This document shows positions 1,641-29,437 of a stretch of DNA of 37,472 bases, piece after piece. The notes beneath the pieces were generated by a model. It had not been told where the DNA came from. It saw nothing but the letters and a program-made list of their open reading frames with translations, and searched no databases. The stretch comes from a virus (lineage: Duplodnaviria; Heunggongvirae; Uroviricota; Caudoviricetes), in IMG/VR virus record IMGVR_UViG_2561511241_000010. One strand, 5' to 3'. Within the stretch, counting starts at the first letter, position 1; the number at the start of each line of letters is the position of its first letter. Made by a program: the position numbers and the translations under genes.

Positions 1641-2909
1641 TTACGAACCAGATTCATTCTCCGCAGCTTCCAAAGCTTCTTCCTGTCGTTGATTCCATAC
1701 ACTGTTTTCAGGCATGTCGAGTCGCACATCGATCCAGCTATTGGCAGGAACATCTATAGGAGCCCCTTTCGTTTTAACAATTTCTCCTTCTTCGCTAAGT
1801 ATGTATTTGCGCTTAAAAAGCCGAATCGTCAGCCCACCGCTTTCTGTTTGCTCAGCTTCAACTACACCCAGTTCTCCCATTCCACCTGGGTCCATTGGCG
1901 GCAGCAGCTGCCAGCCTTCTGATGCCAGGCCTGCCGAACCAGTCAGCAAATAGATACCTACATCTAGCCGGGAAATTTTGATTCCCTCTGCCTCAGCATT
2001 AGCCGTACCGCATCCGCACCAGATAAAATCATTTTCATCAATATCTGTGCGCTGATTCTCGTTCTGAGATTTCACGATTCTGGCCACCGGCGAAGCTGCT
2101 TTCAGCGTGCCATCGGAGGCTTTAGTGGTATTTTCAGAAGTGTAAACAACTGAGCCTGGCTTCACAGACAGCATTGTTGAGAATGCATCGGTGCCATTAT
2201 TTCTTCCTGCAATCTGGTAAGAGACGGTACCACCAATCCCTGCGACACCTGCCCTGAAACGAGGAGTTCCGTTAACCATCACCGTATGAGCCCATACACT
2301 ACCAACAGTTGAAAGTCCTTCAACGGTGAAAGCGTAAGGGTTACCAGCGATACCGGCGATATTCAGGGCATTCGTTAACGTTCCTCCGCCAGTACCAAGA
2401 GCACCAAGTGCTGTTAGCGCTTCATTAGCTGTTTTCGCTCCCGTACCGCCCTGAGCGATGCTGAGAGCAGTTGTTAATCCGCTCAGGCTGGTAATGTCGC
2501 TGTTTGCCCCTTTCTTCGCCAGCGATTTCTGAGCCGGTACCGTGACGGCCACGCCGTTAATCGTGATAGTGACATCTGTAGTACCGTTCATCACATCAGC
2601 GAAGCCACTCATGTAACGCTGGTACATCGTGAACGTTTCAGCAATATCCTGTGCCAGGCCGTCAACGCTCAGGCTGTCGCTCAGAAGAATGGCGTATTTG
2701 GTTCCAGCTGGGATAGCAGGGCTTGCCGCTGGCGTAACGGTGAGACTGGTTGCGCTAACGATGGCGGTAATCTGAAAAACCTGCGCTGGACTGGTCATTG
2801 CAATAACTGTGCAGCCGTTGCGGATCAGAGAACCTGCGGCGGTAAAATTAGTACCTGTGCCGGTGATATTGTTACCACTAATAGCAATGGTGCCTGTTGT
2901 GTAAATCAT
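1641..2909 (-). CDS. Tail fibre protein
   Basis: 422 aa, Gly/Thr/Ala-rich repetitive N-terminal region typical of phage fibre shafts; last gene of the tail module; GAGGTAG ribosome-binding site. Confidence 0.6.
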   Translation of the reverse strand: MIYTTGTIAISGNNITGTGTNFTAAGSLIRNGCTVIAMTSPAQVFQITAIVSATSLTVTPAASPAIPAGTKYAILLSDSLSVDGLAQDIAETFTMYQRYMSGFADVMNGTTDVTITINGVAVTVPAQKSLAKKGANSDITSLSGLTTALSIAQGGTGAKTANEALTALGALGTGGGTLTNALNIAGIAGNPYAFTVEGLSTVGSVWAHTVMVNGTPRFRAGVAGIGGTVSYQIAGRNNGTDAFSTMLSVKPGSVVYTSENTTKASDGTLKAASPVARIVKSQNENQRTDIDENDFIWCGCGTANAEAEGIKISRLDVGIYLLTGSAGLASEGWQLLPPMDPGGMGELGVVEAEQTESGGLTIRLFKRKYILSEEGEIVKTKGAPIDVPANSWIDVRLDMPENSVWNQRQEEALEAAENESGS

Positions 2910-15058: not shown

Positions 15059-15529
15059 TCAGGAACCAGACGCGTAGATGCGTTTAGGTTTGCCGCGTAC
15101 ACGCAGAGAATAGGTAGCGCCAACAACGGAAGAGGTTGCAGCAGACCATGAGCTCTGGCGTACCTCCACCAGCACGTAGAAACCGTTACCAGACGGGAAT
15201 ACCACGCGCAGCGCGCGCAGTTCGTCATTTTCGTAAGCGGTCTGCAGTGCCTCCTGTGCTGCTTCATCGCCAACCCAGTTACGGGTAATGCTCATTTCAG
15301 CAGGCGCGGCGAGGCCGTTGGTTTGCTCCTGTTCAGTTGAGCACAGCGTGGTTACGTCGATATCCCCTTTTTGACCGCCTGTGAAGGTGATCTCCTTTGT
15401 TGCACAGGCCGCTTCCAGCCAGGTAACACCAGCCCCCGGGAAACCTGAGGCGTTAAAATCCTCGGCGGTTACGGGTGCGTCGGAGACGGCAAAGGTCATC
15501 CCCTTTGTGACTTCATACTTACTGGTCAT
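15059..15529 (-). CDS. Major tail (tube) protein
   Basis: 156 aa in the position between head-tail joining genes and the G/T chaperones. Confidence 0.65.
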   Translation of the reverse strand: MTSKYEVTKGMTFAVSDAPVTAEDFNASGFPGAGVTWLEAACATKEITFTGGQKGDIDVTTLCSTEQEQTNGLAAPAEMSITRNWVGDEAAQEALQTAYENDELRALRVVFPSGNGFYVLVEVRQSSWSAATSSVVGATYSLRVRGKPKRIYASGS

Positions 15530-16377: not shown

Positions 16378-16712
16378 TTTTCAGCTCCCGTTTTGCAAAG
16401 GATTTCCAGGCGAGTGCCGGTCGCATTTGCTACAGGAGGACCGATGATATTTAGCACCTGACCTTTATACGGGCCGCTGAGCACTTCCAGACGAGAAGAG
16501 GCGTTCAGCTCAGCCCTGAAGCGCATCCAGACGCGAATGGTTGCCTGCGCAGTTTCCGCGCCGCCTGACATCTGCTCTCTGCCGCTGATCCCCTTTACCT
16601 CAGCCGGGACCGGGTTGCCACCTGTCCACGATTCAACCGGCTGACCAGATGGATCGCGCGAAGTCGTGAAGGTGAGAATTTTTACCCGGTGCCTGAAACG
16701 TCCAGGTTCCAT
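16374..16712 (-). CDS. Head closure / head-tail adaptor protein
   Basis: 112 aa; position in the HK97-like joining module. Confidence 0.6.
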   Translation of the reverse strand: MEPGRFRHRVKILTFTTSRDPSGQPVESWTGGNPVPAEVKGISGREQMSGGAETAQATIRVWMRFRAELNASSRLEVLSGPYKGQVLNIIGPPVANATGTRLEILCKTGAEK

Positions 16713-17038
16713 CAGGAGCCCTCCTCAGGTTCAGATTTACCGCGCCAGTTGCGATGGATGAACATCATCCGTTCTGCGGCGGCGTTCTCATAAAGCTGTA
16801 CTTCGCTCTGCGCGGTCCTGTGCTCGAACATGTCCGCAAACACCAGCAGTACGGCGCCCTTCACTGCTGCAGGAATGTCAGTTGCCGCTTTCCATGTCGG
16901 TTCATCACACCACCGGTAGCAGTAGTCAAAGGCTGCCTGTGCGTACAGCGTGATCAGCTCGTCCCTGTCATCCTCCTCAAACTCAATCTGCTGTTTGAAA
17001 AGGGGGAGGCTAATTACATCCAAAACATCTATCGCCAT
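16712..17038 (-). CDS. Head-tail connector (gp6-like) protein
   Basis: 108-aa acidic protein directly downstream of the major capsid gene. Confidence 0.6.
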   Translation of the reverse strand: MAIDVLDVISLPLFKQQIEFEEDDRDELITLYAQAAFDYCYRWCDEPTWKAATDIPAAVKGAVLLVFADMFEHRTAQSEVQLYENAAAERMMFIHRNWRGKSEPEEGS

Positions 17039-17072: not shown

Positions 17073-18230
17073 TCATGAGCCAGAAGAGAAAGTGCCCTTG
17101 ATGATTGCCGTCGGGCGATAGTGCGCCAGCGCAAGGCGTTCTTCACACAGGATGGTCAGCATGTTTTTCACGAAGTTGTCGCGATCTTCGCGGCTGACTT
17201 CTACGGTGGCATCCATGCGATCCCACACCTGTGAGGCCATATCAAAACCGCCCACCGTAAAGGTGCCGGCGGCTTGCGCCTTAGTCGGAACCACTGGCAG
17301 GCCCCACATGATGTTGCTGGTAAACGCCTGAGGACCACCGAAGATATAGCGGCCTTCGTTGTCTTTCAGCAGCGCAATGTTGTGCCAGTCGCGCGGGTTC
17401 AGGACGATACCGGAAGCGCTAAACTCAGACTCTGTCACCTGGTAAATAGCGTGAGCGATGATGTCAGCACGGGTGTCACCAGTGGCATTCAGCGAGGTGT
17501 CGTAGGCGGTTGCCACTTTGTTCAGACCTTCCAGGTTATCCCCGGTACCGTCGCCGTTCAGCAGTTGGCCCTCTTCCTTCAGCGCCAGGCCATACATCAG
17601 ACGGCCGTTGACGTATGACTGCAGCATTGGCGCATCGTCCATCACCTGACGTGATGCCTGCACCCAGTGCGCGATAGTCTTCACGTTCGCGGTCTGCTTG
17701 CTGAATGTGATATCCGATTCTGGCTTAAGCGCTTTCTCAGCCACCACATCGGCGTTATTGGTAAACACCTCTTCACGCACATATTCCAGAGCGTTACTGG
17801 AAATGCGGCCCTGAGCCAGCAGGTCACGGATGGTCAGACGGCGCAGGCCCGGCATGATAATTCCCGGGATCTGCATAGGCTGGATCAGTGCGCCAGCAGA
17901 GTCAGCGTCACTGCCGAGCGACTTATTGAACGTCTTCGCGTCGAAGGTGCCCTGTTTACCGTCCCATGACTTAATGAGCTCTTCAGCAGCTCGTTCAGAG
18001 AAGGATTTCTTCTCACCCGGATTTTCAGCGCCGGATGCCAGTTTCTGTTCAAGATCGAAGAGGCGGGTACCGGATTTGGTCAGTTCTTCCTGTACCTTCA
18101 CCAGGTCGGCCTGCAGCTGTTTGGATACCTTACCCGTGCTTTCGATTTCTGCTTTCTGTGCATCGAAAAGCTGGGACATTTTCTGCTGGGATTCTTCAAT
18201 AGCTTTTTGAATGAGAGCGAGTTCAGACAT
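17073..18230 (-). CDS. Major capsid protein, HK97 fold
   Basis: 385 aa with N-terminal coiled-coil delta domain followed by a capsid domain; follows the protease gene. Confidence 0.9.
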   Translation of the reverse strand: MSELALIQKAIEESQQKMSQLFDAQKAEIESTGKVSKQLQADLVKVQEELTKSGTRLFDLEQKLASGAENPGEKKSFSERAAEELIKSWDGKQGTFDAKTFNKSLGSDADSAGALIQPMQIPGIIMPGLRRLTIRDLLAQGRISSNALEYVREEVFTNNADVVAEKALKPESDITFSKQTANVKTIAHWVQASRQVMDDAPMLQSYVNGRLMYGLALKEEGQLLNGDGTGDNLEGLNKVATAYDTSLNATGDTRADIIAHAIYQVTESEFSASGIVLNPRDWHNIALLKDNEGRYIFGGPQAFTSNIMWGLPVVPTKAQAAGTFTVGGFDMASQVWDRMDATVEVSREDRDNFVKNMLTILCEERLALAHYRPTAIIKGTFSSGS

Positions 18231-22392: not shown

Positions 22393-22596
22393 CTATGCCG
22401 AATGTTTGTCTACCTGTTCGAGTTTCCGATCGCCTTTCCCGTGCCCGGAGACAACATGCCATGAGACGGTCACTGTCGGCACCTCCTGCCCTACAGCGTG
22501 CGAGAACTGAATGGATGTCACGTCCTTCATCTCCACGCCATCAATCACCAGGCGAACGAATTTTCCATCGCGGTATTCAATGCTGAGGTCTTTCAT
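22393..22596 (-). CDS. Hypothetical small protein
   Basis: 67-aa ORF whose start overlaps the HNH stop by one nucleotide. Confidence 0.35.
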   Translation of the reverse strand: MKDLSIEYRDGKFVRLVIDGVEMKDVTSIQFSHAVGQEVPTVTVSWHVVSGHGKGDRKLEQVDKHSA

Positions 22597-22949
22597 TACG
22601 TGCTCCAGTGAGACGCAGGATCAAGCGGGTAGCCATTGGCATCACAGCCTATTACAGCGCCGCTCTTCTCCATTCTCTGTTTCGTTGAGTCGTGATGTGC
22701 TTTGCACAGTGGCTGCCAGTTCTCTTTACTCCAGAACAGGAGCTGTGCTTTCGATATAGCCAGCGGGTTACCTGACTTAAGCGCATCTTTGAGTTTGTGG
22801 GGTTCGATATGGTCAACCACCGTTGCTGGGGTTATGCGCCCCTGCTGCTCGCACATCACACATAGTGGGTGCTGCTGCAGGAAACGCAGACGGGCCTTAT
22901 CCCATCGGCTGCCATATACGCGGGGCTCTTTGTTCATGCCAGTCTCCAT
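22596..22949 (-). CDS. HNH endonuclease
   Basis: 117 aa with CxxC...H...CxxHH arrangement (CVMCEQQG...VDHIEPH...CKAHH). Confidence 0.85.
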   Translation of the reverse strand: METGMNKEPRVYGSRWDKARLRFLQQHPLCVMCEQQGRITPATVVDHIEPHKLKDALKSGNPLAISKAQLLFWSKENWQPLCKAHHDSTKQRMEKSGAVIGCDANGYPLDPASHWST

Positions 22950-23524
22950 GCGCGCCGGCGTTCCGTCCTCGGCTCGTTGTCAGGGTGACGCTCAACCGTC
23001 GGGAGGTCAGCGTGATCCACCAGCGAGTAACACGGATAAATCACCCGGCCACCGAATGCCTCACCGACGGCGTAATCAGCTGCCAGCGTTTTATTCCATG
23101 CGTTAAGCATGCGCGCCAGCCTGCCCTGAGGAGGGCTGTAACATACGCCGTGAATCAGTTTGCTTAATACGATGTGGTCACCACAGACGCGATCCGCATC
23201 CACCAGCATTCCGGCAATTTCTTTCTGATACTGCGGCGGTCGGCCGGTACCGAGATAAAAGCTCAGCATGTCGTCAGGGAAGCGCACCAGCCATTCAGTT
23301 ACCTTATCGGTGAAGCCCTGTACAGGAAGCGCGTCGTCTTCCAACACCACTACCCGGCATGTTTGCTCTGCTGCCCACTCAAGCGCACGCCGATGATTCC
23401 AGTTCGCGCCGCGGTTACCGTCATCAATAAGCAGATGAGCATCCAGCAGCGCGGTAAGTCGTTGCGCATGACCTATGCGAGAGTGATGGCCAACCACAAC
23501 AAACTTCACTTGTGTTTCCACCAT
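22934..23524 (-). CDS. Putative GT-A-fold glycosyltransferase-like protein
   Basis: 196 aa; pattern NHRRALEWAA...VVVLEDDALPV resembles the acidic-motif core of GT-A (family 25-like) transferases; overlap-coupled to both neighbours. Confidence 0.4.
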   Translation of the reverse strand: MVETQVKFVVVGHHSRIGHAQRLTALLDAHLLIDDGNRGANWNHRRALEWAAEQTCRVVVLEDDALPVQGFTDKVTEWLVRFPDDMLSFYLGTGRPPQYQKEIAGMLVDADRVCGDHIVLSKLIHGVCYSPPQGRLARMLNAWNKTLAADYAVGEAFGGRVIYPCYSLVDHADLPTVERHPDNEPRTERRRAWRLA

Positions 23525-24963
23525 GCGGCCTCCTTACCGATACCATCAGTTTTGAAAACGGTATGTACCAGGGGGCCGGTGACCAGCCTGTCAGCGAATG
23601 ACTGCGCGACAATACCGAACGCCAGCATGTCACCCACCGCGGCGCCAGCCTGTTCTTTCTTCCAGAAACGATAACTCTCTATCCGGTAGTAAAGACGGAT
23701 GATGCCGTGAGCAAACGCCATGACATCAGCGCGGGTACCGCCCAGCAGACCAGCGTTAAGCATCACATCGCCGCGGTGCGCTTCAATGAATTCTTGATAG
23801 ATACGCTCAGGATGATTCTGCTTTGCCCAGGTGTCGGCGTATGTCTTCGGTTCAGAACCGACGTAAACATTCCCGGGCTGCATTTCTTCCCACGGCGCGC
23901 GAAGCATTTCGACATCGGTACCATCTGTACACCACACGAACCGGTATTCAGGGTGATCGCGTAGGTGCTGCCAGATATGCAGCCAGCGCCGGAAGTAGAC
24001 ATTCATCTTCACGTCAGGAACGCGGTAAAGCTCAACGTCTGCCGGTGCCGTCTGTAGTTCATCCACCAGCGCGATGCGGCCACAATGTCGAAGCGAGGCC
24101 GCCCACCCGCTCAACATGTCAGGTGAGGCTACCATTCTCGTACCGCGCTGGGGGTCGGGCTGGCTGGTCAGTAGCGTAGTGATAACCACGTCGCGCTGCT
24201 GGCGGTATTCAACGTAACCAGTAAACCCGGCGTCACGACGTTCGTTGTGGATCTTCACGTTACGTTCCACCAGCGCCTGTCGGTCGGGACGCGGTACCGA
24301 ACGCTCAACGGCTTCATGCTCATCGAGAGAGTGGATCAGCTTTTCTGAACCGAAGACATCAGCGTAAGCCCACGTCGTGAGGCCAGCGTTATGAATCCGC
24401 ATGGCGAGGTCGCTGTGTTCGTACATGCCGCGACCGTAAACCGTATCGAAACCGCCAACCTTCTCGACAGCGCTACGGTGGTAATACAGCATCACGCCGC
24501 GCTGCCCGGTGTAAGCGATGTGCTTATCATCCCGGTACAGGACTGCCATATCCTTCAGCTTATTCGTCCCTGCCAGATCGAGGAACTGGTAAGCCAGGTG
24601 CGGTTCGGGTGATTCGACGTATGGCAGGTGCCAGTTATCAACGATGGGCCAGGCGTCATCGTCCCAAAGGAATAGATGCTCACATCCGGCGTCCATCAGC
24701 GCGGTTAAACTGGCGTTCTTAGAAGCAACAATGCCGAGTGATGTTTCATGGCGAAGCAGCTGCACGCCATCAGGCACTACTGCGGCAGGTTTAGAGCCAT
24801 CGTCGATAACCACCACCAGCGCACCGATGGGAAGATGTTTGGTGTGCTGCTCAATGGCACGCTTTAAAACGTCTGGCCGGTTATGGGTAGTTATGGCAAT
24901 GCCAATCCGTGACGCTGAAGCGCAAGCGGGTACAAACGGGACACCATCAATAGTGACCTGCAT
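23506..24963 (-). CDS. Two-domain protein with N-terminal family 2 glycosyltransferase domain
   Basis: 485 aa; N-terminus IGIAITTHNRPDVLKRAIEQ...VVVIDDGS...LWDDDAWP carries GT2 signature motifs; about 230-aa C-terminal domain of unknown function; no long hydrophobic segments; GTGGAGAA ribosome-binding site. Confidence 0.65.
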   Translation of the reverse strand: MQVTIDGVPFVPACASASRIGIAITTHNRPDVLKRAIEQHTKHLPIGALVVVIDDGSKPAAVVPDGVQLLRHETSLGIVASKNASLTALMDAGCEHLFLWDDDAWPIVDNWHLPYVESPEPHLAYQFLDLAGTNKLKDMAVLYRDDKHIAYTGQRGVMLYYHRSAVEKVGGFDTVYGRGMYEHSDLAMRIHNAGLTTWAYADVFGSEKLIHSLDEHEAVERSVPRPDRQALVERNVKIHNERRDAGFTGYVEYRQQRDVVITTLLTSQPDPQRGTRMVASPDMLSGWAASLRHCGRIALVDELQTAPADVELYRVPDVKMNVYFRRWLHIWQHLRDHPEYRFVWCTDGTDVEMLRAPWEEMQPGNVYVGSEPKTYADTWAKQNHPERIYQEFIEAHRGDVMLNAGLLGGTRADVMAFAHGIIRLYYRIESYRFWKKEQAGAAVGDMLAFGIVAQSFADRLVTGPLVHTVFKTDGIGKEAAWWKHK

Positions 24964-25699: not shown

Positions 25700-25984
25700 C
25701 TAACAGTCGGCATCTGGACGCGCTACAGCACGACAGGCCCACATGCAGGCTTCCTGCATTTTGGTGCGCGCAATGGCGAGACAGCGCAGCGCCTCTGAAC
25801 GATCGCTAGCCTCATCAGAGTTGGCCTCCACTACCTGCAAAGATAGATGTGTGCGTTCAAGGTCCAACTGCTCGCAAAAATCACGGCTAATTTCCTTCAG
25901 GCCATTCATTTGAGCAATATCGTCTGCGGAGAGGGTTCGATATCCTTTTACTGTACTTCCGTCCTGTGGTTTAGCTTCACTCAT
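25700..25984 (-). CDS. Hypothetical protein at the end of the lysis cassette
   Basis: Start chosen at internal Met (MSEAKPQ), which overlaps the upstream lipoprotein stop; about 94 aa, soluble. Confidence 0.4.
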   Translation of the reverse strand: MSEAKPQDGSTVKGYRTLSADDIAQMNGLKEISRDFCEQLDLERTHLSLQVVEANSDEASDRSEALRCLAIARTKMQEACMWACRAVARPDADC

Positions 25985-26214
25985 GGAGTTCTCTTCTCGG
26001 TTGGTTTCTGGCAGTTCGCCTGCCACGCTTTGTTATGCGCCAGGATGTCTTTCTTCGTCTGGCGGTCCAGAACATCCCAGTCGTGATCCGTTCCGTATAT
26101 GGGTTTAACCCAGTCGCAAGCCGTGTCCACTACTTCAACCTTTACGGGTCCAGTTGTCCCGCAGCTCGCGATCAACATCGTCGCCAGACATATGGTTAAC
26201 AGTTTGCTGTACAT
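25981..26214 (-). CDS. Outer-membrane lipoprotein, o-spanin-like
   Basis: Signal peptide with lipobox LIASC; start lies inside the 3' end of the upstream membrane-protein gene in another frame. Confidence 0.5.
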   Translation of the reverse strand: MYSKLLTICLATMLIASCGTTGPVKVEVVDTACDWVKPIYGTDHDWDVLDRQTKKDILAHNKAWQANCQKPTEKRTP

Positions 26215-28636: not shown

Positions 28637-29437
28637 CTATTTGCTCCGATCATATAAATAAGTTGTCGCCTTCTCAAATTCCACTGCTGCGTGAAGCTCC
28701 CCCTGGCGCAGAGTGTCCACCAGCATTTCATAGAAGGGTTTCCAGTTGCGTGACCATGAGGACTGATGGAGGTCAGGGAGACGCTTCAGAATGGCGCGGT
28801 GTACCGTAGCCGAGGAGATAGCAGAGAAGCCATTACCAGAGCAACGTTCACACGTTTTGAAAACCGGTGCGCCGCGGTCTTTGGTCGCTTTGCGGTCCAA
28901 CACTTCGCCTTTACCGCCACACCTGCACCGGGCAAGGATCACTTTCTTTCCTCCGCATGTTCCGCAAACCCTATTCACCAGCTCATTTTTAATCTTCGGG
29001 GCCACAACTTCGGCACCGTCGGCGTCGAAAATACCAGGATGTTTAACCACATCCTCATTCCCGGAGATAAACCCGGTACCGCTGCAACTGTGACATGTCA
29101 CGCTGGTAGCCGCCGAACGGGAGTAATCAGCAAAGGCAAATTGTGCCAGCATCTGCATACACCATCCGAACTGCCCACCAGCTGCTTTGCGCACATTCTT
29201 CGGTGCGACATCCATCGCATATCGCGCCAGCGCCTGAACTGCGAGCTGTTCATCCGTTTTGCTGATTCCCGCTTTACCGAAGAACGCCGCCAGGCCGAAG
29301 CGCGCACGGCTGCTAGTGGTGCCAATTGCCGCCATTACATCTGTTCCTGTAAGGCGGTCCGGAGAGGTTCCTTTCACGTCGTCGCTGATGTGCATTCCTT
29401 GTGGACTAAAATGTTTGAGCGATGATTCCAGTTTCAT
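28637..29437 (-). CDS. Q-like late antitermination protein (zinc-finger)
   Basis: 266 aa with several CxxC pairs (CHSCSGTG, CGTCGG, CRCGG, CERCSG); located between replication genes and the lysis cassette, followed by a terminator. Confidence 0.5.
   Translation of the reverse strand: MKLESSLKHFSPQGMHISDDVKGTSPDRLTGTDVMAAIGTTSSRARFGLAAFFGKAGISKTDEQLAVQALARYAMDVAPKNVRKAAGGQFGWCMQMLAQFAFADYSRSAATSVTCHSCSGTGFISGNEDVVKHPGIFDADGAEVVAPKIKNELVNRVCGTCGGKKVILARCRCGGKGEVLDRKATKDRGAPVFKTCERCSGNGFSAISSATVHRAILKRLPDLHQSSWSRNWKPFYEMLVDTLRQGELHAAVEFEKATTYLYDRSK

Follow-up and report, generated by a model that had tools for sequence, protein, structure and literature searches.

Late-expressed glycosyltransferase genes of an HK97-like prophage and their probable role in glycosylation of virion proteins at C-terminal Gly-Ser ends

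The window (the whole stretch of 37,472 nucleotides that was analysed, IMG/VR record IMGVR_UViG_2561511241_000010) matches E. coli UMNK88 at 100% identity and holds an HK97-like prophage. On its reverse strand two overlapping glycosyltransferase genes, here called GT485 and GT196 after the length of their products, lie next to a gene for an HNH endonuclease. The features of this region, and of the late promoter region from which it is expected to be read, are as follows.

23506..24963, reverse strand: GT485, a 485-aa soluble glycosyltransferase with probably two GT-A domains (ORF, PHROG, homologue and model evidence)
24214..24912, reverse strand: N-terminal GT-A domain of GT485, about residues 18-250, GT2/GT27-like, with D54-D55 and the DxD motif D101-D102-D103
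23509..24201, reverse strand: C-terminal domain of GT485, about residues 255-485, a sequence orphan with a predicted Rossmann-like GT-A fold
22934..23524, reverse strand: GT196, 196 aa, a minimal GT-A glycosyltransferase of the Che8 gp110 / Corndog gp38 family
22596..22949, reverse strand: HNH endonuclease (Pfam HNH and phrog_2323), translationally coupled to GT196
28613-28584 and 28550-28529, reverse strand: late promoter-like site and strong terminator, directly downstream of Q (consensus scan)

The 485-aa and 196-aa reading frames, their motifs and both gene overlaps are exactly as a sequence-only reading of this DNA had given them. GT485 carries the motifs LVVVIDDGS (residues 49-57) and LWDDDAWP (residues 98-105), and GT196 carries VVLEDDALPV (residues 58-67). 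The acidic and histidine residues D54/D55, D101-D103, E62-D63-D64 and H171/D173 show little or no variation among diverse homologues, and the glycosyltransferase motifs are therefore not chance matches. GT485 and GT196 overlap by 19 nt (23506..23524), and GT196 and the HNH gene by 16 nt (22934..22949). Within the 3' end of GT485, the ATG of GT196 is preceded by AAGGAGG, a strong Shine-Dalgarno sequence with a spacer of 5 nt, and an alternative HNH start at 22937 would give an ATGA stop/start overlap with GT196. No membrane-like segment was found in either protein in a Kyte-Doolittle scan (top 19-residue means of 1.37 and 0.92), in agreement with the earlier proposal that both are soluble.

The gene pair had been placed inside the packaging operon. 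Instead, it lies at the distal end of the late transcript that depends on Q, beyond the lysis genes and the accessory-gene region, and about 390 bp lie between the HNH and terminase genes. The HNH gene is the last sizeable gene ahead of the terminase genes, followed by a 67-aa ORF (22393-22596), and from the arrangement of the HK542 and HK97 genomes in their linear form the cos site is expected within the gap of about 390 bp. Directly downstream of the Q gene (28637-29437), the promoter-like site and terminator resemble the layout of lambda pR'/tR', and in HK542 a pR'/qut is annotated at the equivalent position. Between the lysis genes and GT485 no convincing promoter or terminator was found. 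The pair would be transcribed from the pR'-like site following Q antitermination. Translational coupling and late expression, both suggested before, are in line with the overlaps, the Shine-Dalgarno sequence and the position on the late transcript. The GC content of the pair (0.555) is like that of the structural genes, whereas the adjoining insert is AT-rich; a gene for an Acb2/Tad1-type anti-CBASS sponge (25700-26026, Pfam E 7.5e-18) is found 740 bp upstream of the pair.

GT196 is 34% identical to Che8 gp110 over 192 aa (E 1e-24) and 33% identical to Corndog gp38, and also matches Myrna gp238; in an alignment of 75 members of the GT196 family the catalytic-type residues are invariant or nearly so. 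Along its whole length GT485 corresponds to phrog_1579 (E 1e-251). It is, likewise over the full length, 42-46% identical to glycosyltransferases of Cluster F mycobacteriophages (43% for Boomer gp102) and 37% identical to Myrna gp234, its counterpart being the glycosyltransferase of about 480 aa that is present in most Cluster F phages and in Myrna. The pairing of the two genes recurs in Boomer (gp102 and gp105), in Myrna (gp234 and gp238), in the jumbo phage KpSz_1, where the genes are adjacent, and in the loci L088, L089 and L251. In L088, L089, L249 and L251, which are proteobacterial-type prophage or metagenome loci, the pair is found within the head-tail module, flanked by the genes for connector and head closure.

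With GT485 as the query only relatives of at least 82% identity were retrieved, and the diverse homologues came from searches with the Boomer homologue and a family profile; a locus search with a 40-sequence alignment yielded close relatives only. The Pfam family Glycos_transf_2 (PF00535) is matched by 66 of 85 GT485 relatives at E up to 0.01, and the GT485 of the window scores 20.8 bits, below the gathering cut-off of 23.3. The NCBIfam matches were to generic glycosyltransferase models only, all of them sub-threshold, and GT196 matched no Pfam or NCBIfam model. Direct sequence searches of the PDB with both proteins brought no informative match; those to proteasome and immunoglobulin entries are due to chance.

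The structure models of both proteins are confident (pLDDT of 93 for the AlphaFold2 model of GT485 and 91 for that of GT196). Profile searches and structure prediction, which the sequence-only reading had proposed as a check, point to transferase folds, and all top structural matches of both models are GT-A glycosyltransferases. The signature of metal-dependent GT-A glycosyltransferases (CAZy GT2 / GT25 / GT27-like) is present, with a Rossmann-like fold in which the fourth strand is followed by an acidic motif of the DxD type. In Foldseek searches, the best matches of GT485 are the two-domain GT-A polymerases PmHS2 (Pasteurella heparosan synthase) and K4CP (E. coli K4 chondroitin polymerase), together with ColGalT1. 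Like GT485 as predicted here, each of these has two GT-A-type domains per chain, but sequence identity is 10-15% and GT485 is about 100 residues shorter. ColGalT1 (GT25), of which the acceptor is a protein side chain, matches GT196 too, distantly, in both structure and profile. Homology, the structural matches and the conserved catalytic-type residues together confirm that both proteins are glycosyltransferases.

The C-terminal domain of GT485 had been described as uncharacterised. In sequence it is indeed an orphan: sequence relatives were detected within its own family only, and no family link was found by Pfam, PDB profile search or hhalign against the GT196 family. Its structure model, however, indicates that it most likely represents another glycosyltransferase domain of the GT-A fold, with the invariant residues D347 and D350 (CTDGTD) after the fourth strand; D270, R326, N403 and H484 are invariant as well. 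As judged from the models, GT196 holds one GT-A domain and GT485 at least one, so that two catalytic domains are confirmed for the pair and three are probable.

The predicted substrates are found among the structural proteins. Only four proteins of the window end in Gly-Ser; over all loci, and excluding capsid, tail-tube and adaptor proteins, the background of such ends is about 0.5% of predicted proteins. The four are:

17073..18230, reverse strand: major capsid protein (HK97 gp5 type), 385 aa, end ...GTFSSGS-COOH; predicted substrate
15059..15529, reverse strand: major tail (tube) protein, 156 aa, lacking an Ig-like domain, end ...KRIYASGS-COOH (phrog_158, Pfam tail-tube families); predicted substrate
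16712..17038, reverse strand: head-tail adaptor (gp6-like), 108 aa, end ...PEEGS (Pfam Phage_connect_1); possible substrate, low confidence
1641..2909, reverse strand: side tail fibre protein, 422 aa, end ...ENESGS (phrog_1591, Pfam Phage_tail_C_2); possible substrate, low confidence

The Gly-Ser end of the adaptor occurs in 39 distinct sequences, and likewise in HK97, which lacks the enzymes; for this reason we keep the adaptor at low confidence. The same applies to the side tail fibre, since the fibre of HK542, 57% identical to that of the window, ends in ...EPAS.

Gly-Ser-COOH ends of capsid proteins are observed in the window, in Che8 (major capsid protein ...NKTGS, tail tube ...YSDGS) and in six further capsid lineages with a member of the GT196 family. 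The residues preceding Gly-Ser vary freely (SS, AS, AA, ES, EP, DP, QQ, GA and others), whereas Gly-Ser itself is fixed. Both the capsid and the tail-tube protein have this end in L088, L089, L090, L249 and L251, all of which carry GT196-family genes. Within the HK97-type family, the major capsid proteins from loci with the glycosyltransferases all end in Gly-Ser (61/61), and the sole variant with another end (...FSAD) comes from loci that lack the enzymes and from one locus of unknown status. The tail tube of HK97-type loci has the Gly-Ser end in 54 of 55 loci with the enzymes and in none of 5 without (Fisher p 1e-6), and in the family of 403-aa major capsid proteins the corresponding counts are 45/47 and 2/14 (Fisher p 4e-9), p-values that overstate independence, since either family comprises related and in part redundant loci. 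In this second family the forms from loci lacking the enzymes end in ...GA, and among the HK97-type loci all five tail tubes from such loci are of the 234-aa type with an Ig domain. A further variation on this pattern is seen in L230, where, alongside a divergent GT196, the end ...ATS is shared by the capsid protein and a tail-tube-sized ORF of 152 aa from the region of the tail genes. The scan with Che8 gp110 covered linear isolate genomes only, with the capsid gene at the opposite end, and added nothing to this comparison.

The tag is not strictly dependent on the enzymes, since HK97 and several other phages that lack them retain the capsid end ...SSGS; the tail tube of HK97 is of the Ig type and ends in ...TLTIS. 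Head genes share 94-100% identity within this group of phages, and the Gly-Ser end in these phages may reflect module exchange. Other exceptions are L168, which has the pair and no structural protein ending in Gly-Ser, L235, with a capsid end ...GGGA, and L064/L096, with an Ig-type tail tube. The major capsid protein of Corndog ends in ...PLVGS, but its tail tube in ...KGDS.

Evidence for virion glycosylation outside the actinobacteriophages was reportedly judged slight in a 2023 abstract by Freeman et al. Within the literature accessible to us, known reports concern actinobacteriophages only, and none was found for enterobacterial or other Gram-negative phages. For mycobacteriophages, virion glycosylation is summarised for Che8 (gp108-110), Corndog (gp36-38) and Myrna (Freeman et al. 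2023, Cell Host Microbe 31:1216, as presented in PMC12363180, PMC12619734 and PMC11256854). In these summaries, Che8 gp110 and Corndog gp38 are given as the two glycosyltransferases essential for capsid glycosylation (PMC12363180), and the glycans are placed at the C-termini of capsid and tail-tube subunits (PMC12619734). Virion glycosylation of Che8 is reported to shield from antibodies, and antibody recognition of actinobacteriophages to be altered. The gene pair of the window, which had been singled out as a candidate for something undescribed, is thus homologous to mycobacteriophage glycosyltransferase genes for which glycosylated capsid and tail-tube subunits are reported (PMC12363180, PMC12619734). 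By sequence homology it belongs to an already known kind of gene, and the evidence on its substrate is the new part.

The window shares with the Che8-type system a gp110-family enzyme, an adjacent additional, putatively elongating glycosyltransferase, and putative C-terminal attachment sites, with Gly-Ser on both capsid and tail tube as in Che8. GT196 is the homologue of Che8 gp110 and Corndog gp38, and GT485 that of the Cluster F enzymes and Myrna gp234. At the right genome end of Che8 the glycosyltransferase genes gp108-110 are followed by the small gp111 and the HNH gene gp112, and the pair of the window is likewise located beside an HNH gene; in both systems the genes are found by an HNH gene and genome end or among structural genes. 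In contrast, the elongating enzymes of Che8, gp108 and gp109, are unrelated to GT485, and the methyltransferase of the mycobacteriophage system is absent from the window. The phage of the window is also of a different kind, being lambdoid, HK97-like and temperate in a Gram-negative enterobacterium, and glycosylation in its group is a prediction.

We consider it likely that the pair attaches O-glycans to the virion, at Gly-Ser tags on the C-termini of its proteins. The observations on which this reading is based are the homology, the fold, the conserved catalytic residues, the position in the late operon and the co-variation of the enzymes with Gly-Ser ends. As the enzymes are akin to mycobacteriophage glycosyltransferases and the head and tail-tube proteins share the same Gly-Ser end, the phage probably sugar-coats its own particle. 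The enzymes would form a virion glycosylation module made late in the cytoplasm, along with the structural proteins. GT196, as a minimal metal-dependent GT-A enzyme, would recognise the free ...x-Gly-Ser-COOH end of the major capsid and tail-tube proteins and transfer the first sugar from a host nucleotide-sugar donor onto the hydroxyl of the terminal serine. GT485, with probably two more GT-A active sites on one chain, would add at least two further linkages, and might make a repeating chain like the two-domain polymerases that it resembles. This division of labour is inferred, and so are the linkage (O-linked, to the terminal serine), the identity of the donor sugars and the length of the glycan. 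Once assembled, head and tail would bear one glycan per subunit, and in the HK97-type family such a glycan seems to substitute for the Ig-like domain that the tail tubes of relatives without the enzymes carry. Possible benefits would be shielding from antibodies, as for Che8, adherence to mucus or surfaces, or masking from host sensors.

In a wider form, the free C-terminal Gly-Ser-COOH would be a portable tag for O-glycosyltransferases of the GT196 / Che8 gp110 family in phages of Actinobacteria and Enterobacteriaceae, specifying one glycan per subunit and, in HK97-like phages, functionally replacing the Ig-like domain of the tail tube. We give this generalisation about an even chance of being correct; if it is, glycosylated virions would be common for prophages in the genera Enterobacter, Citrobacter, Klebsiella, Cronobacter and Salmonella.

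The sequence-only reading had left three targets open, namely phage DNA, virion proteins or a host target, and the co-variation of the enzymes with the capsid and tail-tube C-termini favours the virion proteins. Glycosylation of a host protein or of a component of host defence by the enzymes, as an anti-defence or takeover function, is unlikely. The Acb2/Tad1-type gene is close by, anti-defence genes often cluster, and the position in the accessory region beside it would fit a host-directed function too, as would the soluble, cytoplasmic nature of the transferases. However, no PADLOC match was found for either protein, and characterised relatives modify virion proteins. Moreover, the family spans phages of both Actinobacteria and Proteobacteria. 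Host proteins differ between these two groups, whereas the tag on capsid and tail tube goes with the enzymes. A host target has no support here.

We also regard lysogenic conversion or exclusion as improbable. Here an envelope glycoconjugate (LPS core, undecaprenyl-phosphate O-unit, capsule or enterobacterial common antigen) would be modified from the cytoplasmic face, so that a receptor is changed. The GtrABC systems of P22, SfV and others are likewise glycosyltransferases of temperate enterobacterial phages, GtrB belonging to GT2. Yet GtrABC consists of membrane proteins including a flippase, expressed in the lysogen from a position beside the attachment site, whereas the pair is soluble, late and located beside the HNH gene and genome end. 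No hydrophobic segment was found in the pair, and no membrane partner or flippase-like gene among its neighbours, which upholds the earlier view that these are not seroconversion enzymes of the GtrB type. The pair has no convincing promoter or terminator of its own and its GC content is not that of an AT-rich insert; its expression in a lysogen is unlikely given the translational coupling to the HNH gene in the late transcript. In addition, the pair resides inside the head-tail module in other lineages, and conversion would leave the co-variation with capsid and tail-tube termini unexplained.

The T4 alpha- and beta-glucosyltransferases (alpha- and beta-GT) and the TET-associated glycosyltransferases (TAGT, PF20691) are also soluble phage enzymes of lytic growth. 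The two T4 enzymes have a GT-B fold, all of these enzymes need a hydroxymethylated base, and to our knowledge phage DNA glycosylations all act on hydroxymethylated pyrimidines. Glycosylation of phage DNA against restriction, in the manner of the T-even or TET-associated enzymes, would agree with late expression next to the packaging genes, with weak TAGT matches in 6 of 85 GT485 relatives (best E 1.3e-5) and with database names that read 'glucosyltransferase', but is very improbable and without support here, as the GT485 of the window itself has no TAGT match, as PHROG and Pfam searches, which covered the main prophage genes between integrase and tail fibres together with all genes near the pair, revealed no hydroxymethylase, TET/JBP, DNA methyltransferase or other base-modifying enzyme, and as the enzymes co-vary with protein C-termini and have virion proteins as the targets of their closest characterised relatives (PMC12363180).

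If virion glycosylation is indeed the function of the pair, glycan-coated particles are also made by common temperate phages of gut Enterobacteriaceae. A change in antibody recognition by virion glycans is relevant to phage therapy. As HK542, mEp390 and ECP1, which all carry the pair, grow on E. coli K-12, the biology would be directly testable in the best available genetic system; this extends to shielding from immunity, binding to mucus and escape from host sensors of capsid or tail-tube proteins. A two-residue C-terminal tag and a 196-aa initiating enzyme would furthermore constitute a tool for site-specific glycosylation in the E. coli cytoplasm, as a two-gene system.

In RefSeq genomes of E. 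coli, GT196 is still named 'hypothetical protein', and elsewhere 'glucosyltransferase', a label that invites a mistaken reading as a DNA-modifying enzyme.

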